Notes: generated by a model not told the origin, from the sequence alone. DNA of 56,525 nucleotides from Chloroflexota bacterium (GCA_030550295.1 JAUQPQ010000003.1:1-56525), one strand, 5' to 3'; counted from the stretch's first letter, positions 5,597 through 23,981 are shown. Numbers and translations: made by a program.

Positions 5597-6313
5597 ATGG
5601 CGAAAAACAGGAGAGGATTGACATCGCAGCCTCTTGGTGACCCCATCATCGCATACTTCCGAGACGCCTTTCTCATAGGGGCTGGGGCTACCCACTTGTA
5701 CCTGGTGCGCCATGCTCAATCTATGAGCAATACAGGGGAAGCGAACATTTATGATGATCCTCCCCTGACAGAGGTAGGTATAGAGCAGGCCCGGCGCCTG
5801 GCCAAGCGTCTGAGCTACCAGAGCATTACGGCCATCTACTCTAGCCCCCTTAAGAGGGCCCTTCAGACCGCTCAAATAGTGGCGGAGGCCCTTAGCTTGT
5901 CCGTCCAAGTGGACGAGGGGCTGCGAGAGGTGATCATGGGCAGCCCCACTACCGATGTAAGGAGCCTTATAGGGCCGGAGGCGCTAGAGGCAGCGCGACG
6001 TATCGCTAAGACGTTGCGGTGGGATGCCTTTCCTGGCTCAGAGGGGAGCAGATCCGCCCGCAAGCGAGTAAGGACGGCAATTGACGCCATAGCGCGTAGG
6101 CATCCCAGGGGGCGCATAGTCCTTGTAACCCACGCAGGTGTTATCCAAACGTACGTGAGTATAGTCCTAGGCATAAACAAAGACTTCTTGTTCTATCCCT
6201 TCAACGCGGGCATCACATCGATCAGGGTCAAGGGTCGGCGCCGCGTGCTATGGCGCCTCAACGATGTAGCCCACCTAGACGGCCTTCCCTCCGGCTTTGG
6301 TGGCATATCCTAA
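5597..6313 (+). CDS. Histidine phosphatase (phosphoglycerate mutase family)
   Basis: LYLVRHAQS, SSPLKRALQTA, LRE, LVTHAG, LNDVAHL. Confidence 0.85.
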   Translation: MAKNRRGLTSQPLGDPIIAYFRDAFLIGAGATHLYLVRHAQSMSNTGEANIYDDPPLTEVGIEQARRLAKRLSYQSITAIYSSPLKRALQTAQIVAEALSLSVQVDEGLREVIMGSPTTDVRSLIGPEALEAARRIAKTLRWDAFPGSEGSRSARKRVRTAIDAIARRHPRGRIVLVTHAGVIQTYVSIVLGINKDFLFYPFNAGITSIRVKGRRRVLWRLNDVAHLDGLPSGFGGIS

Positions 6314-7440
6314 AGCAGCCGCCTAACGTCGGTCTTTTCGTAACGTCGCAGCTTCTCCTCGTCTAGCTGGATGCCAAGCCCAGGGCCCTGTGGGACGTGC
6401 ACATAGCCCTGTTGGTCCACCTGGAGGGGTTCAGTAAGCATGAAGTCGCGGATCTCAGGCGTCCAGCACGGAGGTTCTAGAGGGAACTCAAGGAAAGTCA
6501 CTCCTCCTGCCGCTGCCACGTGCATGTTGGCCACCAGGCCTATCCCGTTGGTCCAAGTGTGGGGCGTAAACTCCCGTTTGGCCTGCCTGATCATGAAGGC
6601 GAGGCGGTGGCACGTCCAGATGCCCCCTACGAAGGTGCAATCGGGCTGGTAGACGTCAAGGGAATTATGTTCTAGGTAAGCTGATATCTCCTCTGGGCCG
6701 CGGGCCAGTTCGCCCCCAGCGAGGCGTAGCGAGTTCAAATGTGACCTGAGCTCGGCCAGGCCGTGGTAGTCGAAGGCGTCAAGGGGCTCCTCTAGCCAGT
6801 ACACTCCCATGGCCTCCAGCTCTTTGGCTACCCATATAGCAGTGCGTAAGTCCCACCGGTGCGGCTGCTGATCAGGGGCGATGCGCCATCCCCAGTTAGC
6901 GTCCACCATGATGGTCATGGAATCGCCCACAGAGGTGCGCACCGCCTCCAGCACCTTTAAGTCTTCCCTGGGATCGGCCGAGTGGAAGCGGAGCTTGATG
7001 GCGCGGAACCCAAGAGCTTGGAACTCTTGTACCACGTCCACCCTCTCAGCTGCTGGCCGTAGCTCAGCAGTAGAGGCGTAGGCCAAAAGCCGGGGCTCGC
7101 CACCTCCTAGTAGGCGGTAGATGGGCTCTCCCAAGGCCTTCCCCACGATGTCCCACAGGGCTACCTCCAAAGCCCAAGGCCTACCCACGAAGAAAGAGAA
7201 TGACCGCAGGTTCTCCACGTGACGCACGATGTCCATGGGGTCTTGTCCCACGAGGAGGGCCCCGGCTACGTCCCAGCGCACCGGCACACCCCCTGAGCCT
7301 ACCCCCACAATCCCTTCGTCTGTGTGGACTTCTACCACATGCACTCGGGCGACATGGCTTGGGAAAGGCTGCCAGGTGGGGTGGAAGGCTCGAGGCAGGG
7401 GGAACTCGAAGACCCTAGTCTTTACTTCTGTGACCTTCAC
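6310..7440 (-). CDS. Mandelate racemase/muconate lactonizing (enolase superfamily) enzyme
   Basis: ALWDIVGK, IKLR, MVDAN, WLEEP, AGGE, PH, PGLGI; GTG 7440 follows SD GGAGGT. Confidence 0.88.
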   Translation of the reverse strand: MKVTEVKTRVFEFPLPRAFHPTWQPFPSHVARVHVVEVHTDEGIVGVGSGGVPVRWDVAGALLVGQDPMDIVRHVENLRSFSFFVGRPWALEVALWDIVGKALGEPIYRLLGGGEPRLLAYASTAELRPAAERVDVVQEFQALGFRAIKLRFHSADPREDLKVLEAVRTSVGDSMTIMVDANWGWRIAPDQQPHRWDLRTAIWVAKELEAMGVYWLEEPLDAFDYHGLAELRSHLNSLRLAGGELARGPEEISAYLEHNSLDVYQPDCTFVGGIWTCHRLAFMIRQAKREFTPHTWTNGIGLVANMHVAAAGGVTFLEFPLEPPCWTPEIRDFMLTEPLQVDQQGYVHVPQGPGLGIQLDEEKLRRYEKTDVRRLL

Positions 7441-7535
7441 TGCACCTCCCTGAATCACAGGCCGTTAACTTTAGTAGGCACTTGCTATTCTAAGCGATCC
7501 ACAAGTAATCTGTGGAAGGCAAATGGAGGTGTGCC

Positions 7536-8729
7536 ATGCCTGGCCCGTTGGAAGGGATAAGGGTTCTGGATTTCACCATCGCTCAGCAGGGGCCCTATGC
7601 CACTCTTTTGCTATCCCACATGGGAGCTGAGGTAATTAAGGTAGAGATCCCTGGCCGGGGCGACGTCACCCGGGAGATAGCCCGCGATCGCCGTACCAGG
7701 CTGAGCTACTGCTTTTTGGCTCTCAACCTAGGGAAAAAGAGTGTGACCATCAACTTGAAAAGCGCTAAAGGGCGGCAGCTGGTTCTAGACCTAGTCCAGC
7801 ATTGCGACGTGGTGGTGGAGAACTTCAACCCTGGCGTCATGGAACGGCTGGGGCTAAGTTATGAAACGCTGCGAGCGGTCAACCCGAGGATTATATACGC
7901 CAGTGCATCGGCCTTTGGCACGAAAGGCCCTTGGGGGAAACTCCCCGGGGTAGACCTGTTGGCCCAGGCGATGGGTGGCCTCATGAGCGTTACTGGGTAC
8001 CCAGGAGAGCCTCCCCACCCAGTGGGGGCAGCCGTAGCCGACCACATTGGCGCAGTCACTTTGGCCCTAGGGGTGGTAGCTGCCCTTGTGGCCAGGGAGC
8101 ATACTGGTCAGGGGCAAAAGGTGGAGACGTCCCTCCTAGGAAGCATCATGGCTGCCCAGTCTTGGGAGATCGCCTATTACCTTAACAGTGGGGAATCGCC
8201 TTCAAAGGCGGGGAGGGGCCATAGCCTAGTCCCCCATATTTACGGCGTCTATAGGACGGCCGACGGTTTTCTAGCCATAGGGACGGTGCCTATAGAGCAG
8301 TGGGAGCAGTTCTGTCAGGCCATCGGACTGCCCCACCTGGCCTCAGACCCACGCTTTGCGCGGTTAGGGGAACGTCTACGTCGGTTAGAAGAGCTGCGTC
8401 CTATCCTGGACGACCACTTCTCCCAGCGCCCTACCGAAGAATGGGTAGCGTGTCTTCGGGCCATTGATATCCCGGCTGGCCCAGTGCTGGACTACATCGA
8501 AATGGCTAAAGAGGAACAGGTTCACGCCAACAGGTACCTGGTGCAGATAGAGCACCCGAGGGCGGGGGAGGTAACGGTGGTCAACGTGCCCATACAGTTT
8601 TCGGCTACCCCTGGCTCCATAAAGGGGCCAGAGCCAGAGCTAGGCCAACACACTGAGGAAGTGCTAAGCATCTACCTGGGCCTGTCTGCTGAAGAGATAG
8701 CAACCCTCCGGGCCGATGGCGTTATCTAA
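7536..8729 (+). CDS. Family III CoA-transferase (CaiB/BaiF)
   Basis: GPLEGIRVLDF, GAEVIKVE, NLGKKSV, ENFNPG, catalytic VAD, PELGQHT. Confidence 0.9.
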   Translation: MPGPLEGIRVLDFTIAQQGPYATLLLSHMGAEVIKVEIPGRGDVTREIARDRRTRLSYCFLALNLGKKSVTINLKSAKGRQLVLDLVQHCDVVVENFNPGVMERLGLSYETLRAVNPRIIYASASAFGTKGPWGKLPGVDLLAQAMGGLMSVTGYPGEPPHPVGAAVADHIGAVTLALGVVAALVAREHTGQGQKVETSLLGSIMAAQSWEIAYYLNSGESPSKAGRGHSLVPHIYGVYRTADGFLAIGTVPIEQWEQFCQAIGLPHLASDPRFARLGERLRRLEELRPILDDHFSQRPTEEWVACLRAIDIPAGPVLDYIEMAKEEQVHANRYLVQIEHPRAGEVTVVNVPIQFSATPGSIKGPEPELGQHTEEVLSIYLGLSAEEIATLRADGVI

Positions 8730-10003
8730 GGCGACGTCTCCTCTAATCGTCCCTGATACAGCAAGGGGACGGGGCTAGGGAGAGGGCCCATGACCACCCC
8801 AGCCTCCCTCAATGAGGCTATCTCCTGGTCTGAAAGCCCCAGAAGTTCCCGTAGTATTTCGTCAGTGTGTTCCCCCAGGGCAGGAGGTGGCCCTTTGACA
8901 CCACCAGGAGTGACGGAGAGCTTAACAGGGGTATTGGGCACCTTCAAGCGAAAGCCCTTAGGGTGTTCTACTTCCACAAACATCTCCCTGGCAAGAATTT
9001 GGGGCATCTCGGCTGCCTGGGCGATGTTGTTCAAGGGCCCGCAAGGGATGCCCACCCCTCCCAGCTCCTCCAACCACTCTTGAGTAGTCTTCTGGCGGAA
9101 CGCCTCCGAAAGGATAGGCTCCAGAAGGTGATGATGCCGCGTGCGCAGTGCCGGGGTCTCGAAGCGGGGGTCATCGATGAGGTGAGCTAGACCCAAGAGG
9201 GCCAGCAAGATCTCCCACTGGTTCTCTACCCCCCAGCTGAGGGCGACCACGATCCACCCGTCCTTAGTAGGGAACGCCTGGAAAGGGGTGACCGATGGGT
9301 GCCTGGTCCCTAGGGGGCCAGGGACTTCCCCAGTGGCGAAATAGCGCACAAAGGCGTTTTCTAAAATGGCGATCTGGCAGTCCAGCATGCTTATGTCTAC
9401 CATTTGGCCTCGGCCAGTCCTATCCCTCTCCCTCAGGGCAGCAAGGATGCCGATGGCGGCGAAAAGTCCTGCTGCAATGTCGCCAAGGGAAATGCCTGGC
9501 CGCACCGGGGGGCCATCAGGGTAACCGGTGATGCTCATGATACCGCCCATCCCCTGGACGATGATGTCTAGGGCTGGCTTTTCCCGCCATGGCCCTGTTT
9601 GCCCGAAGCCCGAAACAGCGCAATATACGAGGCGGGGGTTACGCTGGGAGAGCACCTGATAGCCTAGGCCGAGCTTTTCCATCGTCCCAGGGGTGAAGTT
9701 CTCCACCAGAACATCGGCCTTCTCGACGAGGCGCAGGAGGAGCTCTTGGCCTTCCGACCGTTTAAGGTCGATGCATATGCTGCGCTTGCCCCGGTTGATG
9801 GAAAAGAAGTAGGCTGATTCATCGTCTATATAGGGCTCGGTGGTGCGGGCGACATCGCCATAAGGGGTTCGCTCCACCTTTATGACGTCGGCCCCCAAAT
9901 CGCACATGATCATGGTGGCAAAGGGCCCCGCCAATACCCAGCTCAAGTCTAGGACTACCAAGCCTTCGAGGGGCCCTCTTGTAGGACGCCTCTTTTCCCC
10001 CAT
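8726..10003 (-). CDS. Family III CoA-transferase (CaiB/BaiF)
   Basis: GPLEGLVVLDLS, AGPF, NRGKRS, ENFTPG, SLGD, PALGEHT. Confidence 0.9.
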   Translation of the reverse strand: MGEKRRPTRGPLEGLVVLDLSWVLAGPFATMIMCDLGADVIKVERTPYGDVARTTEPYIDDESAYFFSINRGKRSICIDLKRSEGQELLLRLVEKADVLVENFTPGTMEKLGLGYQVLSQRNPRLVYCAVSGFGQTGPWREKPALDIIVQGMGGIMSITGYPDGPPVRPGISLGDIAAGLFAAIGILAALRERDRTGRGQMVDISMLDCQIAILENAFVRYFATGEVPGPLGTRHPSVTPFQAFPTKDGWIVVALSWGVENQWEILLALLGLAHLIDDPRFETPALRTRHHHLLEPILSEAFRQKTTQEWLEELGGVGIPCGPLNNIAQAAEMPQILAREMFVEVEHPKGFRLKVPNTPVKLSVTPGGVKGPPPALGEHTDEILRELLGLSDQEIASLREAGVVMGPLPSPVPLLYQGRLEETSP

Positions 10004-11355: not shown

Positions 11356-11846
11356 TGTCGTTGGAATCGACTCTCTTCCGGCGTATTATGTCCCAGTTCC
11401 CAACAGGGGTGACCGTGGTCACCACCCGTGTGGGGGACTACCTTCATGGCAGCACCGTTAACTCCTTTACTTCTGTCTCCCTGGAGCCAATGTTGGTGCT
11501 GGTCTGCTTGGACAAGAAGGGTGACACTCATGAGTTGTTGCTAAAGAGCGGCATCTTCGCTGTCAACATTTTGGCCCAGGAACAAGAAGGCATGTCTCGA
11601 CTTTTCGCTACCAAGGGTGAGGGCCATAGTCACAACCTTGACCAGGTGGCGTACAGGCTAGGAGTCACTGGGGCGCCTATCCTAGAGGGTTGCCTTGCCT
11701 ACCTTGACTGTGTGGTGGCCCACCGCTTTCCTGGCGGGGATCACACCATCTTCATAGGCGAGGTAGTGGATGGGGCCCTAATACGCGAAGCGCCTCCCCT
11801 CGTCTTCTTCCGGGGCAAGTACGTGCGTCTGCTTGAGAGCCCCTAG
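11355..11846 (+). CDS. Flavin reductase family protein
   Basis: [30 protein letters not shown]. Confidence 0.9.
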
Positions 11847-13018
11847 CGCTGCACCACCATGGCGATGCCCTGGCCTCCCCCGATACAAAGGGTGGCGAGG
11901 CCCAGGTGCGCCCCTCGTCGCCTCATCTCGTAGAGAAGGGTGACCAGGATGCGTGCCCCGCTCGCCCCTATGGGGTGGCCCAAGGCTATAGCGCCCCCGT
12001 TGACGTTGACCCGCTCCCAGTCCCAGCCAAGCTCGCGACCTACAGCTAACGATTGGGCAGCGAAGGCTTCATTGGCCTCAATAAGATCCACGTCCCTCAA
12101 GTCTATGCCTGCCTTTTCTAAGGCTTTGCGCGTGGCGGGGACCGGTCCCATCCCCATGATGCGAGGGGGCACGCCGGCGTTAGCATAAGAGCGTACCCAG
12201 GCAAGTGGCTCCAACCCCAACTCCTTAACCTTGCGCCTAGACGCTAGCACTACTGCTGCCGCGCCATCGTTAATGCCGGAGGCGTTGCCGGCTGTGACGG
12301 TGCCGTTGGAAGCGAAGGCGGGACGGAGGCGGGCCAGCTTCTCCGGGCTGGTATCGGGCCGGATATGCTCATCACGATCGACGACACTTGTGCCTTGTCG
12401 GCCCTGGATCTCTACTGGAGTCACCTCTTCGGCAAAGCGCCCCTCCTGCCAGGCTTTGGCAGCCTTCATGTGGCTCTCATATGCGAACCGATCCTGGTCC
12501 TCTCGTGATATTTCGTACTCACGCGCCACATTCTCGGCCGTGTTACCCATGTGACATTGTTCAAAGGCGCACCATAGGCCATCCTTGATCATGTGGTCTA
12601 CCACCTCTCCGTGTCCCATCCGGTAGCCGAAGCGGGCCCTGGGCAGAAGATAGGGGGCATAAGACATGCTTTCCATCCCACCTGCCACAATCACATCGGC
12701 TTCGCCAAGGGCGATAGCTTGCGCTGCGAGCACTACCGCTTTCAGGCCGGAGCCACACACTTTGTTAACAGTGGTCGCGGGGACACTTTCAGGCAGACCA
12801 GCCATCATAGCCGCCTGCCGTGCTGGGTTCATACCCAGCCCCGCCGACAGGACGTTGCCCATTATCACCTCTTCAACCTGATTAGCCTCGATCCCTGCCC
12901 GCCGGATAGCCTCTTTTATGGCTACAGCGCCAAGCTGTGGCGCTGGGACATCGCTCAAACTGCCGCCGAAAGAGCCTATGGGCGTTCTTGCCGCCCCAAC
13001 GATGGCGACTTCCTGCAT
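11843..13018 (-). CDS. phaA: Acetyl-CoA C-acetyltransferase (biosynthetic thiolase)
   Basis: [29 protein letters not shown]. Confidence 0.85.
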
Positions 13019-13046
13019 AACTTCCCCCTGTTTTGCTGTTTTGTCT

Positions 13047-13331
13047 TCATTGTAGCATAGCGTAAATGAAAAGCCCTGCTGCCGCCAGGACAGCCAGCCG
13101 AAGACGACGCGTAAGAGGTACGGGCCGCATACCCAGCAAGATGATCACCGCAGCTATGATGGGTGTAAGGAACACCCTAGCAGGATGCTCTGGCTGAAGG
13201 CCAGCGGCGCCTAAAATGGCGTGTAGGGCTATTGCGCACGCAAAAGATGCTACCGCCAGGAGGACTATCCGGCTGTATCTAGGACGTGTACCTGCCCGCG
13301 CAGGTGGCGGCAGGCCCTTCTTTTCCCTCAT
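13047..13331 (-). CDS. Small hypothetical membrane protein (about 3 TM)
   Basis: 94 aa hydrophobic ORF tightly packed between phaB and phaA on the same strand. Confidence 0.6.
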
Positions 13332-13337
13332 GGCATA

Positions 13338-14084
13338 CTAGCGTAGGTACATGCCCCCATTAATATCAAAGGTGGCACCGGTAATGTAGTCGCCCTCGGC
13401 CACTAGGAAGCGGCATAGCTTGGCCACCTCTTCCGGCCGGCCGAACCTACCCATGGGGATACGGGCTAGCAGGCTCTTCTGAACATCCTCGGGTAGGCTT
13501 GTGACCATATCTGTCTCAATGAAGCCAGGGCAAACGGCGTTCACGGTGATGTTGAAGCGGGCCAGCTCTAAGGCTACAGCTTTGGTGAACCCCACGATCC
13601 CCGCCTTGGCCGCGGCATAGTTGGCTTGCCCTATGTTGCCCATCTGCCCCACGATGGAGGACATGTTGACGATCCTGCCACCGCCCCTCTGGATCATGTG
13701 GGGGACCACAGCCTGGGTGCAGTAGAATATGCTGTCCAGGTCAGTGGCGATCACCTCTCGCCACTCCTCCATGCTCATGCGCCGAAGCGTCCTGTCGCGG
13801 TTGACGCCAGCATTGTTGATGAGGATATCGATCCCACCAAAGGCTTCAACGGTGGCATCAACCAGCTTTTGTACCTCGTCTGGATGGGCTACTCCTGCCT
13901 GTACACATATGGCCTTGTGACCTTGACTGTGAAGCTCCTCAAGCAATTGCTCGGCTAGCTCCTTGTGCTGGTAATAGTTGATGGTCACCTTCGCCTTGTG
14001 AGAGGCTAGCTCCTTAGCTATAGCACGTCCTAGCCCCCGCGAACTCCCAGTGACAATGGCAACCCTATCGGACAGGCACGCCAT
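13338..14084 (-). CDS. phaB: Acetoacetyl-CoA reductase / 3-oxoacyl reductase (SDR)
   Basis: TGSSRGLG, NNAGVNRD, GQANYAAAK, PGFIETDMV, INGGMY; next to a thiolase. Confidence 0.75.
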   Translation of the reverse strand: MACLSDRVAIVTGSSRGLGRAIAKELASHKAKVTINYYQHKELAEQLLEELHSQGHKAICVQAGVAHPDEVQKLVDATVEAFGGIDILINNAGVNRDRTLRRMSMEEWREVIATDLDSIFYCTQAVVPHMIQRGGGRIVNMSSIVGQMGNIGQANYAAAKAGIVGFTKAVALELARFNITVNAVCPGFIETDMVTSLPEDVQKSLLARIPMGRFGRPEEVAKLCRFLVAEGDYITGATFDINGGMYLR

Positions 14085-14184
14085 TTTTGACCCCCTCCAC
14101 TATGTTTCCGCTCCTCCAGCCTATATCAGCGGAGGGAGTTCATTCAAGTTATAAATGAAACCTTAGGTGAGCATTAGGAAGTGT

Positions 14185-15864
14185 TTATATCGCCACGGGG
14201 GGCTGGTACTCGCCGAATATGCGGCGCATGACGCCACATATCTCGCCCAGGGTAGCGTAGGCCTGTACGGCTTCCATGATGGGCGGCATAAGGCTAGCTG
14301 AGTCGTGGCAGGCTTCCTCTAGACGCTTTAGGGCTGCCCTTACTTGGGCCTCGTCACGGTGACGGCGCACTTGCTTCAGCTTCTCCATTTGGGCCTGTTC
14401 GGCCTCCGGGTTGGTACGGAACACCATCTTGGGGCGCTCATTCTCCAGGCAGTACCGGTTCACTCCCACGATGATACGCCTTCCCTCGTCTACAGCTTTC
14501 TGGTGGGCGTAGGCTGCCTCTTGGATCTCTCTCTGCATGTAGCCCGACTCGATAGCTGCCACCGCCCCTCCCATGTCCTCGATCTTGTGCAGGTATTCCC
14601 AGGCCTTCTTCTCTAGCTGGTTGGTGAGCCACTCCACGTAGTAGGAGCCTGCCAGGGGGTCTACTGTATCGGTCACCCCTGTCTCGTAGGCGATGATCTG
14701 CTGAGTTCGCACGGCTATGCGTTGGGCCTCCTCTGTGGGGAGGGAGAGGGCCTCATCGTAACAGGAGAGGGCCAGGGACTGGACACCTCCCAGGACTGTG
14801 GCCAGGGCCTGGATAGCTGCCCGGACGATGTTTAGCTCAGGCTGTTGAGCGGTGAGGGTGGCCCCTCCCGTTTGGACATGCGTACGGAACATCCAGGAGC
14901 GGGGATCCTTAGCGTGGTAGCGCTCCCTCATGATACGGGCCCACATGCGACGCAGGGCCCGGTATTTGGCTATCTCCTCGAAGAAGTTGTTTTGAGTATT
15001 GAAAATCCAGGAGATGCGCGGGGCGAACTCGTCTATGTCTATTCCCCTCTCTAGGACGGCGTCCACATATGCTATGGCATTGGCGAAGGTGAAGGCCATC
15101 TCCTGCACAGCTGTCGCCCCGGCATCGCGGATGTGATAGCCCGATATGCTGATGGCGTTGAACTTGGGCATCTCTTTGGCGCACCAGGCGATGAGGTCGG
15201 CGGCCAGCCGCAGAGAGGGCTTAGGGGGGAATATATAGGTGCCACGCGCCACATATTCTTTCAAGATGTCGTTCTGTACCGTCCCCGATACCTGCGAGAG
15301 GGGAACCCCTTGCTTTCGGGCCACGATAGCGTACATGGCCACTATGACTGCGGCGGGGGCGTTGATGGTCATAGAAGTGCTCACCTTATCCAGAGGGATC
15401 CCGTCGAACAAGGCCTCCATGTCGGCCAACGTGTCGATGGCCACCCCCACCTTGCCCACTTCCCCTCTGGCATGTGGGTCATCGGAGTCATAGCCCAGTT
15501 GGGTAGGTAAGTCAAAGGCTACCGAGAGACCTGGCTGGCCTTCCTGAAGCAAGAACTTAAAGCGCTTGTTGGTTTCCTCGGCCGTCTCGTAGCCGGCGTA
15601 TTGGCGTATGGTCCACAGTCGGGTGCGGTACATGGTAGGGTGGATACCCCGGGTGTACGGGTATTGGCCAGGGAAGCCTATGTCTCTAAGGAAATCGATA
15701 TCGGCGATGTCCAGGGGCGTGTAGATGACCTTCGTCTCGGTGGAGCTGGTGGCGAATTCGGAGTCTTGGCGTTCCCCTCCCTTGCGCAGGGCTTCCTGGA
15801 GGATCGTCTTTTCCCACCGTTCCTGCTCCCGGCGGATGCGCTCCAGCTCTTCCTTGTCTAGCAT
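14185..15864 (-). CDS. B12-dependent acyl-CoA mutase, large (substrate-binding) subunit; candidate ethylmalonyl- or methylmalonyl-CoA mutase
   Basis: [48 protein letters not shown]; no C-terminal DxHxxG cobalamin-binding domain. Confidence 0.9.
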
Positions 15865-15873
15865 TTCATCCTC

Positions 15874-16371
15874 CTAATCTCTCACTTGAGGGAAAGAGTG
15901 GGGTATCCCCACCTCTCTCTTGGGTACCAGGACTGAGCGCCGGAAGCGCATCACTAGTTCCCCGTGCTGGTTGTAGGCTCGAGTCTCCACGCTGACGACC
16001 CCTCTATCAGGGTTAGAGCGGGATTCCCGTTTCTCTAGGACGGTGGTCTCAGAATAGATGGTGTCGCCGTGGAAGACAGGGCGCAGAAACTCGATCTTTT
16101 CAAAGCCTAGGTTGGCGATCGCCTTACCTGAGATGTCACGGACGCTTTGCCCAAGGGCTATATCCACCACCAGGTTGCCCACCACCACGTTGCGTCCGAA
16201 CTGGGTCTTCTTGCCATATTCGGCGTCTATGTGGAGGGGATGGTGGTTCATAGTAAGCATGCAGAAGAGGATGTCGTCCATATCGGTGATGGTACGTCCG
16301 GGCCAGTGCCTATAAGTGGCGCCTACCTCGAAGTCTTCGTAGTAGCGGCCAAACTCGTACGCTTCAGACAT
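15874..16371 (-). CDS. MaoC-family hydratase, probable mesaconyl-CoA hydratase (Streptomyces Mch-like)
   Basis: FGRYYEDFEVGATYRHWPGRTIT, LTMNHHPLH, DISGKAIANL, FHGDTIY resemble the MaoC gene of streptomycete ccr clusters as I recall it; SD GGAGG before ATG 16371. Confidence 0.7.
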   Translation of the reverse strand: MSEAYEFGRYYEDFEVGATYRHWPGRTITDMDDILFCMLTMNHHPLHIDAEYGKKTQFGRNVVVGNLVVDIALGQSVRDISGKAIANLGFEKIEFLRPVFHGDTIYSETTVLEKRESRSNPDRGVVSVETRAYNQHGELVMRFRRSVLVPKREVGIPHSFPQVRD

Positions 16372-16385
16372 GGTATCTACCTCCA

Positions 16386-17558
16386 TCATTCCCCGAACAT
16401 GCGCAGAATGTTGCGGGCGATGACTAAGCGCTGGATCTCGTTTGTGCCCTCGCCGATGAGCATAAGGGGGGTATCGCGGTAGTAGCGCTCTACTCGCATG
16501 TCCTTGGTATAGCCGATGCCGCCATGGATACGGAGGGCCTCAAGGGCCACCTCCTGCGCCACCTCTGAGGCGAAGAGTTTGGCCATGCCGCCCCACAGGT
16601 CGGCCCTCTCGCCACTGTCCTTCTTGGCGGCGGCGGCACGGGTGAGGAGGCGGGCTGCCTCTACCTTTGTGGCCATATCGGCTAGCTTGAGCTGGATAGC
16701 CTGATGCTCGGCGATGGGGCGGCCGAAGGTGACCCGCTGTTTGGCGTACCTTATGGCGTCCTCCAGGGCTGCAGTGGCCACCCCCACCGCCCGGGCCGCC
16801 ACGTTGATCCGCCCCACCTCGATGCCGCTCATGATGTGCAACCAACCCTGCCCCTCTTTCCCCCCAAGGAGATTCGCCTCTGGCACCCGGGCATCTTCGA
16901 AGTAGAATATGGTGGTGTCTATGCCTTTGTACCCCAGTTTCTGGATCTGGCCCCCTACGGTGAGGCCTGGCGTAGACTTCTTCTCTACCAACAAGGCGCT
17001 CATGCCCCTGTAGGGGGGCTCGGCTTCAGGATCGGTTTTGACGAGGACGGCGAATAGATGGCCATATATCCCGTTGGAGACGAACATCTTGGTGCCATTG
17101 AGCACATAGAAGCCATCGTGACGGCGGGCTATCGTCTGGATGGATTGGAGGTCAGAGCCGGCGTTGGGTTCCGTCATACAGATGCCGCAGTGGATTTCGC
17201 CGCTTGCTATGTGGGGCAGAAAGCGCGTCTTCTGGTCCTCGGTGCCGAACTGGCTTATCATCCATGAGACGATGACGCTGCCGTTAATGATGCCGCCCAG
17301 GCTCATCCAGCCGCGGGAAAGCTCCTCCACTATGGCTGCATAGGTTACAAGGGATAGGCCTAGGCCTCCATATTCGGGCGGCACGGCCACCCCAAAAAGG
17401 CCCATCTCTTTCATCTTGCGTACCAGCTCGTGAGGATACTCGTCCCGGTGGTCCAGATCCGAGGCGATGGGTATGACTTCTTTCTCCACGAAGCGGCGCA
17501 CCTGGGCGACGATCATTTGCTCTTCCTCTGAAAGGGTGGCCATGGTGGGCAAAGGCAT
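16386..17558 (-). CDS. Acyl-CoA dehydrogenase, probable methylsuccinyl-CoA dehydrogenase (Streptomyces-type)
   Basis: HRDEYP, EELSRGWMSLGGIIN, KLGYKGIDTT, EVGRINVAAR, KKDSGERADL, LIGEGTNEIQ; SD AAGGAG before ATG 17558; ccr cluster context. Confidence 0.7.
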   Translation of the reverse strand: MPLPTMATLSEEEQMIVAQVRRFVEKEVIPIASDLDHRDEYPHELVRKMKEMGLFGVAVPPEYGGLGLSLVTYAAIVEELSRGWMSLGGIINGSVIVSWMISQFGTEDQKTRFLPHIASGEIHCGICMTEPNAGSDLQSIQTIARRHDGFYVLNGTKMFVSNGIYGHLFAVLVKTDPEAEPPYRGMSALLVEKKSTPGLTVGGQIQKLGYKGIDTTIFYFEDARVPEANLLGGKEGQGWLHIMSGIEVGRINVAARAVGVATAALEDAIRYAKQRVTFGRPIAEHQAIQLKLADMATKVEAARLLTRAAAAKKDSGERADLWGGMAKLFASEVAQEVALEALRIHGGIGYTKDMRVERYYRDTPLMLIGEGTNEIQRLVIARNILRMFGE

Positions 17559-17592
17559 AGCTTGCTCCTTTATTAAAGTTTCTGCTGGCTCC

Positions 17593-17659
17593 AGTGTAAG
17601 GCCACGAGAGGGCCTTGACAAGGGCAGTGCCTTGACCCATCCCCCCTCCCCCCCTACAC
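17593..17659. promoter_or_regulatory. Back-to-back divergent sigma70 promoters between the mcd and mcl candidates
   Basis: Minus: TTGTCA(17621-17616)-17-TACACT(17598-17593). Plus: TTGACC(17632-17637)-16-TACACT(17654-17659). Confidence 0.55.
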
Positions 17660-17693
17660 TGGAGGCCGACAGCACCATATATTAGGAGGCACC

Positions 17694-18722
17694 ATGTTTT
17701 ACCTCGAGAAGCAGAACCGGATGGTAATACCTAGGACGGAGCTCACCTATCCTGCTCATCAGATGCGCTTCCACGAGAACGCGGCCAAGGCCCCTGTAGA
17801 CCACGTCATGGCCGACTTCGAGGACGCTTGTCCCTACGAATACAAAGGAGAGGCAAGCCGTCGAGTAGCTGTGGAGGCGCTAAACACCATCGACTTCGGC
17901 GATAAGGTGGTGACGGTGCGCCCCAACAACATTCGCTCCCCTTACTTCCTAGGGGATCTCCAGGCGGTGATGGTGGGCGCACCAGACCGCTTTCATGGCA
18001 TCGTCCTGCCCAAGGTGTACAGCCCAGAGGACATAGTATACGTTTCCAGCCTTCTGGACGCCCTGGAGAAAGAGGGTGGGTGGACTACGCGCGTCCAGAT
18101 AGAGGCGCTCATCGAGACCCCCCAGGCCTTAGTACGGGCCTATGAGATCGCCACCGCATCGGATCGGATGGCGGGTCTCATCTTTGGCATCGCCGACTTT
18201 GCCGCTTCCATCGGGGCGAAGGAGTATGTGGAGGATCAGCACAAGTATTTCTTGTACCCCAAGCAGGCTGTTGTTGTGGCAGCCAAGGCGGCTGGCCTCC
18301 ATGCCATTGACTGCGTCTACTTCCGTATAGTGCGTAGGGACACCCCTCCTGAGGAGGCGAGGGAGATAGAGGAGGGGCTCAGGCGTAAGAACATGGAGGC
18401 GGCCAATCTGGGGATGGATGGCTCCTGGATAATCCACCCCTCTCAGGCTCAGATAGTTAACGAATGCTATACCCCTAGCGACGAGGAGGTGGAGCGGGCC
18501 CGCAGAGCTATCGAGGCATACTATAAGGCAGGTGGCGGCTCCATCATCAACCCTGAGACAGGAGAGTTCGAGGACGATGCTACTGTTAAGGCCAAGCTGA
18601 TGCTATTGGCCAAGGCCGTGCAGGCAGGCAAGCTCACCAAGGATTATCTGGACGAGCTGGCCCGCCGCTCGGCCGAGATTACAGGCTATAACATTCTCAA
18701 GGTTATGAGGCGGATGGGTTAG
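17694..18722 (+). CDS. CitE/HpcH-family CoA-ester lyase, probable malyl-CoA/beta-methylmalyl-CoA lyase
   Basis: ADFEDA, VRPN, LPKV, ALIETP, FGIADF, AIDCVY, WIIHPSQ; ccr cluster context. Confidence 0.75.
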   Translation: MFYLEKQNRMVIPRTELTYPAHQMRFHENAAKAPVDHVMADFEDACPYEYKGEASRRVAVEALNTIDFGDKVVTVRPNNIRSPYFLGDLQAVMVGAPDRFHGIVLPKVYSPEDIVYVSSLLDALEKEGGWTTRVQIEALIETPQALVRAYEIATASDRMAGLIFGIADFAASIGAKEYVEDQHKYFLYPKQAVVVAAKAAGLHAIDCVYFRIVRRDTPPEEAREIEEGLRRKNMEAANLGMDGSWIIHPSQAQIVNECYTPSDEEVERARRAIEAYYKAGGGSIINPETGEFEDDATVKAKLMLLAKAVQAGKLTKDYLDELARRSAEITGYNILKVMRRMG

Positions 18723-19140
18723 GGGCCGGGTCCAACAAAACTGTGGCCTCACCCGTCAGTACCGGTTGGCCCGCCTGATTGTAACACTCGGTTCGTAGGG
18801 TAACGAGCCTTTTCTCATAGTCTATGGCGGTCACCTCTGCCGTAGCTGTCACTGTGTCCCCTACAAAGACGGGGCGCAGGAAACGTAAACTTTGCCCCAC
18901 GTAGATGACGCAGCTGTGCGGGGCAACCTTGGTGCCCAGGGCAGCCGAGATAAGGCTTGCCGTTAGCATCCCATGGACTACGCAGCGACCGAAGCGAGTG
19001 CCGGCGGCATAGCTTTCATCCAAATGAAGTGGGTTCGTGTCGCCAGTGACCTGAGCGAACAAGCGGACGTCCTCAGAAGTGATGGTCTTTTCTATCTGTA
19101 CTTTCTGGCCCACTTCCACTCCCATAAGCGCCACGGCCAC
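18703..19140 (-). CDS. (R)-specific enoyl-CoA hydratase (MaoC/PhaJ/CroR-like)
   Basis: FAQVTGDTNPLHLD, VVHGML, FLRPVFVGD. Confidence 0.85.
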   Translation of the reverse strand: MAVALMGVEVGQKVQIEKTITSEDVRLFAQVTGDTNPLHLDESYAAGTRFGRCVVHGMLTASLISAALGTKVAPHSCVIYVGQSLRFLRPVFVGDTVTATAEVTAIDYEKRLVTLRTECYNQAGQPVLTGEATVLLDPAPNPSAS

Positions 19141-19153
19141 TACCTCCTTGGCA

Positions 19154-20410
19154 TCAGGGCAGGCCCTTTAGACCAGCCCTTGGCACCCCCACTAGGGCCA
19201 CCATGTTGCCTTCAGGGTGACGATTCTCGTACATCAGCTGGTGGGCAAGCCCTATCTCTTCAAACTTAAAGAGGCGAGAGGCCATGCATGGGTCGACCTT
19301 TCCCTCAATCACTAGCTGGTTGAAGGCGGCGGCCTGCTCATCGTTAGCGAAGTGAGAGCCCTGCAGCCGCTTTTGCCTCATCCACAGGTAGCGCAGATCA
19401 ACTACTGCGTTGTAGCCAGTGGTGCCAGCACAGATGACTACCATCCCACCGGTGTCGCACACAAATATAGAGGTAGGGATGGTGTCTTCCCCAGGATGCT
19501 CGAACACGATGCGTGGGTTCCGCCTTTCGCCTAAGACTTCCCAGATGGCGCGCCCAAAAGCCCGGACGCCCTCCAGCCAGCGGTTATATGCCTCCCGGTC
19601 GCTCCAGTGGGGCATCATGCCCCAGTGATTGAAGTTTTTGCGGTTGATGCACCCTTTGGCCCCCAAACGTATGCAGAAGTCAAACTTCTCCTCAGCTGAT
19701 ACGACAGCTACAGGAATGCCCCCGTGCACTTTAGCGATCTGAATGCCCATAGACCCTAGGCCTCCTGCCCCACCCCACACCAGGACCACGTCGCCAGGCT
19801 GAACGGTGTGGGGAGGCCAGCCCAAAAGCATACGGTAGGCTGTGGCCCCCACCAGGGTGGGGGCAGCTGCTTCCTCCCAAGTGAGATGGGGAGCCTTGGG
19901 TAGGCACTGGTGCGCCTGTACCTTGCAGAACTGGGCGAAGCTCCCCCAGTTGGTCTCGTAGCCCCAAATGCGGGCCGAAGGTGCCATAATGGGGTCTCCC
20001 CCTGCCTTAATGTAGGGGTCCTCCGCGTCCCACCACCCGCAGTGGATTACGACATGGTCCCCCACCTTGACGTTGGTCACCTTTTCCCCTACCGCCCACA
20101 CGATGCCCGAGGCGTCTGACCCACCTATATGGAAATCGGAAGGATCCCCATCTCGTTGCTGAATAGATATGACATCTACCGGCACCCCCAGGGCAGCCCA
20201 TACGTTGTTGTAGTTGATGCCGGCCGCCATCACGTATACCAAGGCCTCGTCCGGCCTTAGGTCTTTAGGTACCTCTACCTTCTCCGTCCTGAAAGCATTG
20301 ATGGGCTCACCAAACCGCTCCCGCCGAATCACCTGTGCATACATGTAACGCGGTATATGCCCCAGCGGAGGCATCTCCCCAATTTCATAGATATCTTTCC
20401 TAACAATCAT
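19154..20410 (-). CDS. ccr: Crotonyl-CoA carboxylase/reductase
   Basis: [58 protein letters not shown]; the Asn, Glu and His CO2-binding positions of carboxylating enoyl reductases appear conserved. Confidence 0.93.
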
Positions 20411-20493: not shown

Positions 20494-21237
20494 TTAGGTA
20501 TGGCCAGTGATGCGGTAGGCAGCCTCTTGGAAGCGGCGGCGGTAATCGTCTTGCTGGCGCAAGGTCTGGTTTACTTCTCCCTCTTGGTGAAGGGGTTCCC
20601 AAGTTCCTAGGGAAAGGTCAAGTATCTGCTTAGCTGCCTTAAGCGCCGGTAGTGAGTGGGCGGCCATCTGGGTGGCGAGGGAAAGGGCGCCTGCCAGCAG
20701 CTCTTCCTGGGGGAGGACGCGGTTGACGAGGCCCATACTTAGAGCCTCTTGGCAGTCTACGGGGCGGGCGGTGTAAATGATCTCCTTGGCTCGGGACAGC
20801 CCCACCAGGCGGGGGAGATAGGCTGCTCCAGTGACTAGGCCGTATTCGGCTCCAGGGAAGCGGAAGCGGACGTTGTGGGAGGCGAGACGGATGTCGCAGT
20901 AGATGGCCAGAAGGGCTCCTGCCCCGTAGGCGTAGCCATTGACGGCGGCGATGACAGGCTTGGGAAAGCGCAACACTTTGATGAGGGTGTTAGCTATCAA
21001 GGGGCCCAGATCGGGCTGGGCCACGGCCTCGGCCATATCGGCGCCGGCACAGAAGGCCTTATCCCCTGCCCCAGTGACCACAAGCACATGGACTGGATCG
21101 TCTTGGGCCAGGGCGTCCAGGGCGGCTGAGAGCTCTTGCGCCATTTGGCGGTCTATGGCGTTGCGGGTGTCGGGGCGGTTGAGGCGTAGGAGGGCCACAT
21201 GGCCCTGCTGTTCGAGTTGAAGACGCTGGTAGTCCAT
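20494..21237 (-). CDS. Crotonase-superfamily protein
   Basis: LNRPDTRNAI, KAFCAGADM, IAAVNGYAYGAG; canonical catalytic Glu residues absent. Confidence 0.85.
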   Translation of the reverse strand: MDYQRLQLEQQGHVALLRLNRPDTRNAIDRQMAQELSAALDALAQDDPVHVLVVTGAGDKAFCAGADMAEAVAQPDLGPLIANTLIKVLRFPKPVIAAVNGYAYGAGALLAIYCDIRLASHNVRFRFPGAEYGLVTGAAYLPRLVGLSRAKEIIYTARPVDCQEALSMGLVNRVLPQEELLAGALSLATQMAAHSLPALKAAKQILDLSLGTWEPLHQEGEVNQTLRQQDDYRRRFQEAAYRITGHT

Positions 21238-21304: not shown

Positions 21305-22537
21305 CTAAACGGACAGGATGTGGATGCTAAGGGCTGCTGCCTCGCCCCTAACCATGCCGCCCCCGTTCTCGGTGAGGCCCACTTTGGCCCCCTCTACCTG
21401 GCGGGCCCCTGCCTCTCCTCTGAGCTGCCAGAAGATCTCACATATCTGGGCCACGCCGGTGGCGCCTATGGGGTGGCCTTTGGCAAGTAGCCCGCCGCTG
21501 GTATTAACGGGCTGCTTGCCCCCAAGCTTAGTGTAGCCGCTACGGATGAGGGAGGGGCCCTCCCCCTCGGCGCAAAGGCCGAGCTCTTCGTAAATTATGA
21601 GCTCAGCCGGGGCGCTGGCATCGTGCACTTCTATGACGTCCAAGTCCTTGGGGCCGATGCCCGCCTTCTGGTAGGCCAGCTGGGCTGTCTCGGTGGTGAT
21701 GCCCGGCTCCCCAGGAAGCCGGTCGCGACCTGAGGCCAGCACGGAGGCCCTCACATATACCGGCCGGGAAGTAAACTGGCGGGCCTTGTCAGCAGCCACA
21801 AGCACGACCGCTGCTGCCCCATCGCTTATGGGCGAGCACATAAGCCTAGTTAGAGGCTCCACTACGAGGGGGGCGTTGAGGATGTCCTCTATTGTGTACT
21901 CGCCTCCATATTGAGCCTTGGGGTTTAGGGAGCCGTGGTATAGGTTCTTTACCGCAACACGTGCGAAGTCTTCCTTAGTAGCGCCTGTCCTCTCCATATA
22001 ACGGCGGGCGAAGACGGCATAGAAGTCCATGAACATGCTCCGCCGCTCTCCGGCCCCCTCCTCGAAGGTTGGCTGCCTTTCGCTACTCTTCTCCTTGGCC
22101 TCCTTAGCGGCCTTGGCCATCTGCTGTACCCACTCCACGTCCACCGCGGCGCCGATAGCCTGGAAGGATCGCCTTTTATCTTCGTGGGTGAGCTTCTCCA
22201 TCCCTAGCACCAGGGCGATGTCGTACATGCCAGAGGCTACGTAGAGCCAGCCTAGGTGGAAGGCCGTGGAGGAGCTGGCGCAAGCGTTCTCCGTATTTAT
22301 TACAGGTATGCCCCCTATCCCTAGCTCCCTTAGCACCACCTGCCCCCGGATCATCTCTTGGCCGGTGATAAGGCCAGCGGTAGCGTTGCCTACCACTGCC
22401 ACCTGAAGCTTGGACTTGTCTATCCCTGCCGAATCGAGGGCCCCCTGTACCGCTTCCCGTGCCAAATCCTTCAAGCTACGGTCTAGAAACTTCCCAAACT
22501 TGGTCATCCCAGCCCCGATGATGGCTACGTCGCGCAT
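21305..22537 (-). CDS. Thiolase, SCP2/lipid-transfer type
   Basis: ENACASS, CSPISDGAAA, EVHDA, SGGLLAKGHPIGATG, ENGGG. Confidence 0.9.
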   Translation of the reverse strand: MRDVAIIGAGMTKFGKFLDRSLKDLAREAVQGALDSAGIDKSKLQVAVVGNATAGLITGQEMIRGQVVLRELGIGGIPVINTENACASSSTAFHLGWLYVASGMYDIALVLGMEKLTHEDKRRSFQAIGAAVDVEWVQQMAKAAKEAKEKSSERQPTFEEGAGERRSMFMDFYAVFARRYMERTGATKEDFARVAVKNLYHGSLNPKAQYGGEYTIEDILNAPLVVEPLTRLMCSPISDGAAAVVLVAADKARQFTSRPVYVRASVLASGRDRLPGEPGITTETAQLAYQKAGIGPKDLDVIEVHDASAPAELIIYEELGLCAEGEGPSLIRSGYTKLGGKQPVNTSGGLLAKGHPIGATGVAQICEIFWQLRGEAGARQVEGAKVGLTENGGGMVRGEAAALSIHILSV

Positions 22538-23225: not shown

Positions 23226-23981
23226 CTACAACGTGGGCGTTAGTTTGGAAAAAGGCCCCCAGTCAAATAAGCTGTTGAGGTTGATGAGACTATTAGTAAA
23301 GATGAGCACTCCTACCACTACCAAAGTGGCCCCGCTCACATAATTTATCACAGGGGAGATGAGCCTAAGCCACCTATATAGGGGCAGAAGGGCATTAAAG
23401 GCTAGGCCCAGGAGTAGGAAGGGGATGGCTAGCCCCGCTGAGTAGGCCCCTAAGAGGACTGCTGCCTGCGCTACGTTAGCGCCGGATACGGCCAGGGCCA
23501 GGATGGCCCCTAGGGTAGGTCCAATACATGGGCTCCAGCCAGCGGCAAAGGAGCAGCCTACTAGAAAGGAACGTAAGTAGCCCGTTCCACCCTCTATTCC
23601 CAGCCGTTGCTCCCTTTCCAAAAAGGGAATGGTGATAACTCCAGCAAGGTGTAGCCCCAAGGCGATGAGCAAGGAGCCGGCCACCTTCTGCACTATGTCT
23701 TGGTGCTCACGCAAAAAAAAGCCGATTATCCCTAAAGATACCCCAAGGGAGACAAAGACGACGGAGAAGCCAAAGGTAAAACTGAGGGAGTGTAGGAAGG
23801 GGGCATACGCCCTTGCCTTTATCTCTGTGGGGGAGCCATGCTTTCCCCCGGTGATTGGGGTAGTGGAGGTACCAGTAAGGTAAGTCAGATAAGGTGGCAC
23901 AAGAGGTAAGAGGCATGGGGAGAGAAAGGAGAAAAGCCCTGCACCCAGCGCCACTAGCAAACTTATGCCTCCCACTTCCAA
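23226..23981 (-). CDS. ccdA: CcdA (DsbD transmembrane domain) electron transporter
   Basis: SFLSPCLLPLVP and WSPCIGPTLG; TTG 23981 follows SD GGAGG and overlaps the end of the upstream gene. Confidence 0.88.
   Translation of the reverse strand: MEVGGISLLVALGAGLFSFLSPCLLPLVPPYLTYLTGTSTTPITGGKHGSPTEIKARAYAPFLHSLSFTFGFSVVFVSLGVSLGIIGFFLREHQDIVQKVAGSLLIALGLHLAGVITIPFLEREQRLGIEGGTGYLRSFLVGCSFAAGWSPCIGPTLGAILALAVSGANVAQAAVLLGAYSAGLAIPFLLLGLAFNALLPLYRWLRLISPVINYVSGATLVVVGVLIFTNSLINLNSLFDWGPFSKLTPTL

Follow-up and report, generated by a model that had tools for sequence, protein, structure and literature searches.

The ethylmalonyl-CoA (EMC) pathway for acetyl-CoA assimilation is already known, as are all of its enzyme families, from systems such as those of Rhodobacter, Paracoccus and Methylobacterium, and it has also been proposed for Binatota (PMC8262859). 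As far as titles and abstract openings tell, a literature search pairing ethylmalonyl-CoA with Chloroflexi, Dehalococcoidia or Chloroflexota yielded no description of the pathway for this phylum. Here we describe a cluster of eight predicted pathway genes, accompanied by one small conserved membrane open reading frame (ORF), at positions 11843–20410 (8.6 kb) of a 56,525-nucleotide contig from an uncultured Chloroflexota bacterium of the Dehalococcoidia (GCA_030550295.1, JAUQPQ010000003.1:1-56525). This whole contig (C62) is hereafter called the window, and the genome studied, to which it belongs, is called G000 (1.58 Mb in 127 contigs, completeness 95.7%, contamination 2.6%). Each of the eight genes maps to one EMC step and the genes stand in tight operons; we consider it likely, from sequence comparison, that the cluster encodes a variant EMC pathway. 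The most secure elements of this interpretation are the function of the crotonyl-CoA carboxylase/reductase (Ccr) and the functional link of Ccr with a subfamily of acyl-CoA mutases, here called the ALSC type, and with genes for an acyl-CoA dehydrogenase (ACAD), a MaoC hydratase and a lyase; which substrates the enzymes after Ccr act on, which small subunit partners the mutase and how malyl-CoA is released are what we infer.

In the proposed scheme, two molecules of acetyl-CoA would be converted to crotonyl-CoA by a thiolase (acetyl-CoA C-acetyltransferase, PhaA-type step; 11843–13018, minus strand), an SDR 3-oxoacyl reductase (13338–14084, minus strand) and a MaoC (R)-specific enoyl-CoA hydratase of 145 aa (18703–19140, minus strand), which would perform the crotonyl-CoA-forming step. 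Ccr (19154–20410, minus strand) would carry out the reductive carboxylation of crotonyl-CoA to ethylmalonyl-CoA, which an epimerase encoded elsewhere in G000 would invert, and the window mutase, a large subunit of 559 aa (14185–15864, minus strand), would rearrange ethylmalonyl-CoA to methylsuccinyl-CoA together with a B12 small subunit and MeaB, both also encoded elsewhere. The short ACAD (16386–17678, minus strand) would then oxidise methylsuccinyl-CoA to mesaconyl-CoA, a single-domain MaoC hydratase of 171 aa (MaoC171; 15874–16389, minus strand) would convert this to beta-methylmalyl-CoA, and a CitE/HpcH-type lyase of 342 aa (17694–18722, plus strand, opposite to the rest of the cluster) would cleave the latter into glyoxylate and propionyl-CoA. 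The lyase would probably also condense glyoxylate with acetyl-CoA to malyl-CoA, for the release of which candidates are a CoA-transferase from a pair encoded at 7512–10003 or an unrelated thioesterase, and propionyl-CoA would proceed via a carboxylase, the epimerase and a mutase of the methylmalonyl-CoA mutase (MCM) type, all elsewhere in G000.

Window proteins were scanned with Pfam and NCBIfam models and compared with PDB structures. The thiolase is recognised by Thiolase_N (364 bits), Thiolase_C (185 bits) and TIGR01930 (530 bits against a cut-off of 240.55), has no match in G000 other than itself at E≤1e-10, and has orthologues within the clusters of G001, a genome of the same genus (86%), and of G009, from another family of the order (78%). 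The SDR (adh_short, 215 bits) exceeds the cut-off of the FabG model TIGR01830 (302.3 against 297.75) and lies below cut-off on acetoacetyl-CoA reductase models (PRK12935, 307 against 418; another, 288.6 against 302.1); it is a probable (R)-specific acetoacetyl-CoA reductase, the PhaB-type step, and an SDR follows the mutase orthologue in G001, G009, G012 and G021 and at loci L066 and L086. The 145-aa MaoC (MaoC_dehydratas, 95.8 bits) starts 14 bases after Ccr, and its homologues follow Ccr at L025 (G009), L031, L033, L037, L066, L086 and L101; the G001 cluster yielded no counterpart. Between the SDR and the thiolase, directly downstream of the former, lies a hydrophobic ORF of 94 aa (13047–13331, minus strand) that matches no Pfam or NCBIfam family; it has a counterpart of 103 aa after the SDR in G009 (39% identity, E 2e-16) and could represent a small membrane protein belonging to the operon. 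The ACAD stop and MaoC171 start overlap by 4 bases and a gap of 9 bases separates the MaoC171 end from the mutase, from which we conclude that ACAD, MaoC171 and mutase very probably share one transcript. Neither a promoter scan (5 against 4.1 in shuffles) nor a terminator scan (8 against 7.8) rose above the shuffled background. The original prediction, made from this DNA alone, had placed an eight-gene cluster here, and its coordinates proved exact in the ORF listing and in the Pfam and NCBIfam scans, the 94-aa ORF being additional. It had also matched the genes to PhaA, PhaB, CroR, Ccr, Ecm, Mcd, Mch and Mcl, which holds at the level of families and with a genuine Ccr, whereas the mutase, ACAD, hydratase and lyase are not orthologues of Ecm, Mcd, Mch and Mcl.

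The identification of Ccr is the firmest of the assignments. The protein scores 566.2 bits on TIGR01751, against a cut-off of 378.55, and its solved matches are 9kva (577 bits), AntE (560 bits) and the M. extorquens Ccr 4gi2 (492 bits). The CO2 pocket of the K. setae enzyme KsCcr is formed by Asn81, Phe170, Glu171 and His365, and a tyrosine at the Phe170 position is counted as water-shielding (PMC6628652). Alignment to 6na3 (chain numbering +2) indicates that all four pocket positions are kept, as Asn, Tyr, Glu and His, the Tyr at the Phe170 position being common to this protein and to M. extorquens Ccr 4gi2. We therefore take this protein, on the strength of its predicted pocket, to be a true carboxylating enzyme. 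Its closest public relatives belong to metagenome-assembled genomes labelled Dehalococcoidia or Chloroflexota.

The genome outside the window is in agreement with this scheme. G000 encodes an epimerase on contig C92 (135.4 bits against a cut-off of 114.95), MeaB on C95, three B12-binding subunits, an MCM-type mutase on C92 and two acyl-CoA carboxyltransferases of unassigned specificity. Isocitrate lyase gave no match in this 95.7% complete genome, and the sole match to the malate synthase domain is one of 24 bits on the window lyase. The absence of epimerase, B12 subunit and carboxylase from the window, noted at the outset, was therefore borne out, all of these being elsewhere in G000; the genome search then proposed recovered the epimerase, B12 small subunit, MeaB and carboxyltransferases, and found in G000 no canonical MeaA-type ecm, isocitrate lyase or malate synthase. 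Assimilation of acetate by a compact variant pathway, as had been suggested, is thus supported at the level of predicted function, in that gene content, gene order and genome context fit it and Ccr is over cut-off with its pocket residues.

We have analysed the distribution of the cluster in 41 genomes of the same order, G000 counted in; these genomes are kin, and the counts are not independent. Mutase orthologues were taken at 69–100% identity, the next best match being at 61%, and lyase orthologues at an identity of at least 67%. Ccr was above cut-off in 25 of the 41 genomes and the mutase orthologue was present in 26; the two occur together in 24, Ccr without the mutase orthologue in one (G023, 83% complete), the mutase orthologue without Ccr in two (G012 and G034), and neither in 14. 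Orthologues of ACAD and of MaoC171 were each found in 11/41 genomes and of the lyase in 8/41, and all five key genes (Ccr, mutase, ACAD, MaoC171 and lyase) in 7/41, namely G009 and the six members of family f1. G001 retains the entire cluster, as does G009 with its genes rearranged, and the ACAD–MaoC171–mutase core recurs in 11/41 genomes, which indicates a grouping of these genes beyond chance. The expectation that the genes stay together in relatives was in this way confirmed for G001, for G009 and for the core, and not for the set as a whole, since all five genes occur in 7/41 genomes only and Ccr is unlinked in family f4. In genus g3 the trio is kept and the lyase is on a separate contig in all three genomes, Ccr being unlinked in G003 and G004 and, in G005, separated from the trio by about 2.5 kb. 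Other mutase orthologues adjoin an ACAD and a 300-aa CitE-like gene (G035), a CitE-like gene (G015) or a lyase orthologue and an SDR (G021), and G012 presents a row of Ccr-like reductase, CitE-like lyase, ACAD, MaoC, mutase orthologue and SDR. The Ccr-like reductase of G012, a genome with no true Ccr, has 362 aa (L168, 6597–7682, plus strand) and scores about 275 bits on TIGR01751 against the cut-off of 378; it is without the Ccr-specific insertion and keeps the pocket Asn, Phe and His, with Gln for Glu171.

The mutase (MM_CoA_mutase, 751 bits) is a large subunit without B12 domain. It keeps, as MCM does, a Tyr (RQYAG) and an Arg (ARGTYIF), a pair which, from the residue roles in MCM, ICM and HCM, we take to bind the carboxylate of dicarboxyl-CoA substrates in MCM and Ecm. 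Its assignment as HCM or ICM was ruled out, these having Ile or Phe and Gln where the window mutase has Tyr and Arg. It reads THVQT for the FHTQT of MCM, and QSLALSC for QSLHTNS, the latter in a stretch of 13 residues aligned to GGTQSLHTNS.DE of MCM. This ALSC-type motif is invariant in 27/27 orthologues, taken from related genomes and other Chloroflexota loci, and is present in 119 of the 120 best database matches, all at least 72% identical to the window mutase, which have the Tyr in 120/120 and the Arg in 119/120 cases. Nine alignment columns perfectly split 28 orthologues from seven MCM-type sequences, three of them within the altered motif. With MeaA, ScpA and Mcd references taken from a Paracoccus ferrooxidans replicon that also bears ccrA, we observed that MeaA departs from MCM at the same three motif columns, sharing Leu (for the MCM Thr) at one; its motif, RAVQLPAWNE, is also without His-Thr-Asn, and a separate alignment evidenced a Val between His328 and Gln330 common to MeaA and the window mutase. 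The fused B12 domain and length of about 650 aa that mark the MeaA clade are absent from the 559-aa window mutase, and in a quick maximum-likelihood tree of 49 sequences the 26 ALSC-type sequences form one group, the four MeaA-type sequences stand apart (SH-aLRT 100), and the window mutase shares its clade with split mutases of the MCM and ICM types. As judged from these alignments and the tree, the window mutase is not a MeaA orthologue. Its best solved match is HcmA (4r3u, 568 bits). Taking the conserved dicarboxyl pair and the fixed motif together, we lean towards the window mutase being an ethylmalonyl-CoA mutase analogue.

A different explanation is that the window mutase is a second methylmalonyl-CoA mutase, serving propionate or succinate metabolism, that there is no ethylmalonyl-CoA mutase, and that Ccr has a role other than assimilation, for example supplying extender units or removing reductant. 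Consistent with this, every named one of the 120 best matches is labelled only as methylmalonyl-CoA mutase, the MCM Tyr and Arg are kept, the identity to the MCM-type copy of G000 is 58%, and the only model passed by the window mutase is the generic N-terminal-domain model TIGR00641 (NCBIfam). Yet an MCM-type copy, its QSLHTNS motif complete, already exists in G000 beside the epimerase, and the fixed changes affect an otherwise invariant motif in all orthologues and nearly all best matches; moreover, the mutase orthologue accompanies Ccr in 24 of the 25 genomes that have it and always adjoins a MaoC, ACAD or CitE-type gene, not a carboxylase or epimerase. We regard a second methylmalonyl-CoA mutase as quite unlikely.

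In all, G000 has five MM_CoA_mutase large subunits, none of the MeaA type, alongside three small subunits that bind B12, a single MeaB and a single epimerase scoring above cut-off. The copy on C92 has the MCM pattern (RQYAG, ARGTYIF, QSLHTNS) with the epimerase next to it, that on C46 has the ICM pattern, with Phe and Gln at both specificity positions, and those on C44 and C51 are divergent, each with its own B12 small subunit. The C44 copy keeps the Tyr and Arg, with an insertion before the Tyr, and has GFGTGGVPWDE instead of QSLHTNS; its neighbours are its B12 subunit and a gene of the PrpD/MmgE family. In the C51 copy the sequence is RVLAGEG, and no Arg motif can be recognised. It was also observed that the MCM-type large subunit and epimerase (11657–12028) lie at an end of C92, and an epimerase-like fragment, a B12 small subunit and MeaB at an end of C95 (9977–11770); the two ends are probably one MCM locus split by the assembly.

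The ACAD has the three ACAD domains of Pfam. Its ORF, of 430 aa, starts 15 bases from the divergent lyase start, and residues 1–40/45 have no counterpart in relatives or PDB structures, for which reason the true start is probably Met41 or Met46 (about 17558 or 17543), giving a protein of 385–390 aa; the orthologues have 386–413 aa. Among solved structures it matches FadE3 best (4iv6, 433 bits); Mcd 6es9 scores 273 bits and 8ciw 198 bits. The hallmarks of PdMCD, as given in PMC5798300, are an N-terminal extension of about 170 residues, the arginines Arg252, Arg376 and Arg421, which form a cluster for the terminal carboxylate, and Ala285, which replaces a conserved aromatic residue at a position that makes the cavity for the C2 methyl group. 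The Paracoccus ferrooxidans Mcd orthologue agrees with the PdMCD numbering at 14/14 checked residues. By this numbering the window ACAD, which is without the extension, has Gly252, Ile285, Lys376, Arg421 (AARAVGVA, as in Mcd), Gly534, at a position that is aromatic in most ACADs, and the catalytic Glu535. Among its Dehalococcoidia orthologues, position 252 is occupied by Gly or Thr and position 285 by Ile or Leu, and Lys376, Arg421, Gly534 and Glu535 are present. In five ordinary, non-cluster ACADs, position 421 is occupied by Gln, Gly, Leu or Val, and position 285 by Phe or Tyr in four and by Gln in the fifth. A carboxylate-binding Arg and a widened C2 pocket would thus suit methylsuccinyl-CoA, although two features that define Mcd are missing, and we somewhat favour the reading of this protein as a methylsuccinyl-CoA dehydrogenase analogue. 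The possibility of a truncated Mcd was rejected, the identity being 41% to Mcd and 44% to an ordinary Paracoccus ACAD.

MaoC171 scores 77.7 bits on the Pfam family MC_hydratase (PF19315), against a gathering threshold of 26.5, but covers only profile positions 15–168 of 353; it is not the double-domain protein, with two fused MaoC domains and about 350 aa, that characterises Mch. Its best PDB matches are the beta-methylmalyl-CoA dehydratase 8hgn and the Chloroflexus protein 4e3e, and it aligns to both halves of each. These similarities incline us, with some reserve, to regard MaoC171 as a mesaconyl-CoA hydratase. The lyase (HpcH_HpaI, 112 bits) is about 30% like malyl-CoA lyases (Mcl), and matches the malyl-CoA lyases 5ugr, 4l9y and 4l7z at 123, 118 and 102 bits, with CLYBL at 80 and RipC at 60 bits; it remains under all curated cut-offs (haloarchaeal malyl-CoA lyase, 77.7 against 500; citE, 136.8 against 443; RipC, 115.3 against 375). 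The catalytic and Mg residues of the R. sphaeroides enzyme MCLR are Glu44, Asp45, Arg76, Glu141, Asp168 and Asp299, the last being Glu in the thioesterase clade (PMC3832036). Alignment to 4l9y (chain numbering +21) evidences that the window lyase keeps 6/6 of these residues, with Asp at the lid position, and extends to chain residue 330 of 339, so that it includes the C-terminal lid domain. The six residues are common to the CitE-like superfamily and would indicate catalytic competence rather than specificity. Considering also the order of the structural matches, the balance tips towards a beta-methylmalyl-CoA/L-malyl-CoA lyase.

A distinct scenario resulted from the best 80 Ccr loci from species genomes, whose neighbourhoods were surveyed. 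In 21 of them homologues of lyase, ACAD and MaoC171 adjoin Ccr; one is the Chloroflexi locus of G009 and the other 20 are labelled Binatia, Binatus, delta- or other proteobacteria. In these 20 Binatota-like loci the genes are direct neighbours, with identities to the window proteins of 60–67% for the lyase, 44–49% for MaoC171 and 70–75% for Ccr, and the Mcd signature (Ser248, Arg252, Ala285, Phe287, Arg421, Phe534) is found in 22/22 Binatota-like ACADs. The four Binatota-like genomes that were searched each have MCM-type, ICM-type and MeaA-type mutases (the latter with RTYAG and a length of about 700 aa, one genome having it broken into two frames) and none of the ALSC type; in the Dehalococcoidia an ALSC-type mutase is present and a MeaA-type one is absent. 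Canonical Ecm and Mcd in Binatota-like genomes, and the ALSC mutase and short ACAD in Dehalococcoidia, thus have the same lyase and short hydratase as partners, which is the pattern that would be expected of non-orthologous replacement inside a single pathway. The fuller proposal, that Dehalococcoidia have an EMC pathway with an independently arisen mutase, a split MCM in which QSLHTNS became QSLALSC, and with a likewise independently arisen, ordinary-size ACAD that would bind the carboxylate by Arg421 and Lys376, is one for which we judge the case to be evenly poised.

A number of observations weigh against the EMC interpretation. The window mutase is nearer MCM than MeaA, with identities of 41% to MeaA, 47% to Paracoccus ScpA and 58% to the MCM-type copy of G000, and there is no B12 small subunit within the cluster. 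The Glu of DEAL that follows the altered motif should be Glu370 of MCM, which in the bacterial enzyme contacts the adenosyl group; to judge by residue numbering, the motif presumably lines the substrate pocket. The ACAD is without the N-terminal extension of Mcd and without Arg252, essential in PdMCD, so that it has one Mcd arginine of three, plus a Lys; it is no closer to Mcd (41%) than to the ordinary Paracoccus ACAD (44%), and its closest solved relative, M. smegmatis FadE3, bears the same signature and is of unknown function. ACAD and MaoC171 orthologues (11/41 genomes) and lyase orthologues (8/41) are less frequent than Ccr (25/41), and Ccr moreover lies apart from the other genes in family f4 and in two of three genus g3 genomes. 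HpcH_HpaI matches in G000 only the window lyase, and a second CitE-type gene, for a malyl-CoA thioesterase of Mcl2 type, was thus not found in this genome, the search covering this family and not other thioesterases or CoA-transferases. Finally, the top NCBIfam model of MaoC171 is the itaconyl-CoA hydratase RipB/Ich (164 bits, cut-off 340), and the lyase also matches RipC/Ccl at 115 bits.

The last two matches would fit a lower half of the cluster devoted to the breakdown of C5-dicarboxylates (itaconate, mesaconate or methylsuccinate), in which a CoA-transferase would activate the acid, ACAD and MaoC171 would lead to citramalyl-CoA and the lyase would yield acetyl-CoA and pyruvate, the adjacent Ccr, thiolase and reductase serving butyrate or polyhydroxybutyrate-type metabolism or a redox sink. 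Two family-III CoA-transferases, encoded 2–4 kb upstream (7512–8729, plus strand, and 8726–10003, minus strand; CoA_transf_3, 414 and 450 bits; ends overlapping by 4 bases), are in line with such a function, one of them matching succinyl-CoA:mesaconate CoA-transferase at 324 bits, as is a PrpD/MmgE-family gene within the G009 version of the cluster. However, the RipB, RipC and CoA-transferase model scores are well under their cut-offs, both transferases being below cut-off on every NCBIfam equivalog, and the lyase is nearer the malyl-CoA lyases (123 and 118 bits) than CLYBL or RipC. The transferases are, furthermore, not conserved with the cluster, matches near Ccr elsewhere being of only 34–43%, and C5 breakdown offers no role for a dicarboxyl-type mutase translationally coupled to MaoC171 and ACAD, nor does it explain the same lyase and MaoC by Ccr and an Mcd-type ACAD in the 20 Binatota-like loci. 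We consider C5-dicarboxylate breakdown unlikely, and for the two transferases a CoA transfer to or from malyl-CoA or a C5-dicarboxylate is possible.

It is also conceivable that Ccr, mutase and ACAD act as proposed and that an intramolecular CoA shift follows, after which hydratase and lyase would give acetyl-CoA and pyruvate, the net conversion being of acetyl-CoA and CO2 to pyruvate without glyoxylate. Such an ending would accommodate the fact that neither a malyl-CoA thioesterase nor a malate synthase for glyoxylate use was found in G000, the nearby family-III CoA-transferases, whose family includes the mesaconyl-CoA C1–C4 transferase, and the trifunctional Chloroflexus MCL, which also cleaves citramalyl-CoA (PMC3832036). 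Nevertheless, at 116 bits the match to the mesaconyl-CoA isomerase model TIGR04253 falls well short of its cut-off of 725, the CoA-transferases are not syntenic in relatives, and a succinyl-CoA-synthetase-like pair by the lyase in related clusters suits malyl-CoA and malate better, so that we hold this ending to be very improbable. Succinyl-CoA-synthetase-like genes, single or as a beta/alpha pair, were observed near lyase or CitE-like genes at L110 (G009, 6259–8562), L171 (G021, 11962–14421), L169 (G035, 13374–14591) and L170 (G015, 4530–6113). The G009 pair is under the cut-offs of the succinate-CoA ligase and malate-CoA ligase models, and such a pair could act as a malyl-CoA synthetase or as some other dicarboxylate-CoA ligase. 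As a route of malyl-CoA release in G000 itself the pair was ruled out, its matches there being only weak (31% and 45%) and presumably those of ordinary succinyl-CoA synthetase.

Returning to the window, Ccr is followed by genes for a crotonase-type enoyl-CoA hydratase (20494–21237, minus strand; ECH_1, 177 bits) and an SCP-x-type thiolase-like protein (21305–22537, minus strand; Thiolase_C_1, 133 bits). This pair adjoins Ccr in G001, in G002 and in the G009 cluster, and G005 has the thiolase-like gene only. The region 2366–10003 is rich in acyl-CoA genes, with a crotonase (2366–3178), a pimeloyl-CoA-dehydrogenase-like ACAD (4125–5555) and an enolase-superfamily gene (6310–7458) besides both CoA-transferases. 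At 23963–26035 (minus strand) an ORF of 690 aa joins a cysteinyl-tRNA-synthetase-type domain (residues 2–285, also with a weak MshC-like match) to a family-2 glycosyltransferase domain (458–573); it may be a real fusion connected with the making of low-molecular-weight thiols, or the result of reading two genes as one. The G009 cluster also contains a cysteinyl-tRNA-synthetase-like gene.

What would be new in the variant EMC pathway is the combination, in one compact cluster in Dehalococcoidia, of a split, MCM-derived candidate mutase with a fixed QSLALSC motif and an ordinary-size candidate methylsuccinyl-CoA dehydrogenase. If the interpretation is correct, the EMC pathway reaches beyond Proteobacteria, Actinobacteria and Binatota to Dehalococcoidia, whose form of it would be rated incomplete by pathway callers that look for MeaA, Mcd and Mch. 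Acetate assimilation with co-fixation of CO2 would then have been systematically overlooked in an abundant subsurface and aquatic class, because mutase and ACAD are annotated as generic MCM and ACAD. Ethylmalonyl-CoA mutase and methylsuccinyl-CoA dehydrogenase would each also have a second form of independent evolutionary origin, and the few positions at which these forms consistently differ from MCM and ordinary ACADs would point to specificity-determining residues; the compact enzymes (a split mutase, an extension-less dehydrogenase and a half-size hydratase) could be useful in synthetic Ccr-based CO2-fixation cycles.

Compared with the EMC pathway of Rhodobacter, Paracoccus and Methylobacterium, the order of reaction types and the enzyme families are alike, Ccr belongs to the same clade as M. 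extorquens Ccr, and G000 likewise has the epimerase, MeaB, MCM-type mutase and carboxyltransferases, with no glyoxylate-cycle genes found. The differences concern the enzymes after Ccr: the mutase is split and MCM-derived, whereas theirs is of the fused MeaA clade; the ACAD is without the 170-residue extension and has one of the three Mcd arginines; the hydratase consists of a single MaoC domain where theirs has two; and the lyase is about 30% like Mcl1, with no thioesterase of Mcl2 type found in G000. The arrangement differs as well, since in Paracoccus ferrooxidans ccr, meaA and mcd are at least 14 kb apart and in G000 the eight genes form one cluster. The module of Binatota-like metagenome-assembled genomes (Ccr, short MaoC, Mcd-type ACAD and lyase) shares with G000 the single-domain hydratase and the same type of lyase, but thiolase, reductase and mutase lie outside that module, unlike in G000.

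With the split acyl-CoA mutases (archaeal and bacterial MCM, IcmAB and HcmAB) the window mutase has in common a large subunit of about 560 aa without B12 domain; it differs from HCM and ICM in having Tyr and Arg instead of Ile or Phe and Gln, and from MCM in having QSLALSC instead of QSLHTNS. Itaconate degradation (Ict, Ich/RipB and Ccl/RipC) resembles the locus in having a MaoC and a CitE-type lyase close together and CoA-transferases within 4 kb, but the scores here (164 and 115 bits) are far under the cut-offs of 340 and 375, and the coupled mutase, ACAD and Ccr have no place in that route. Lastly, the 3-hydroxypropionate bi-cycle of Chloroflexus belongs to the same phylum, and the structures that MaoC171 and the lyase match best include its Mch (4e3e) and Mcl (4l7z), respectively. 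With 103 and 102 bits these matches are nevertheless weak; moreover, Mch has two domains and the bi-cycle has no Ccr.

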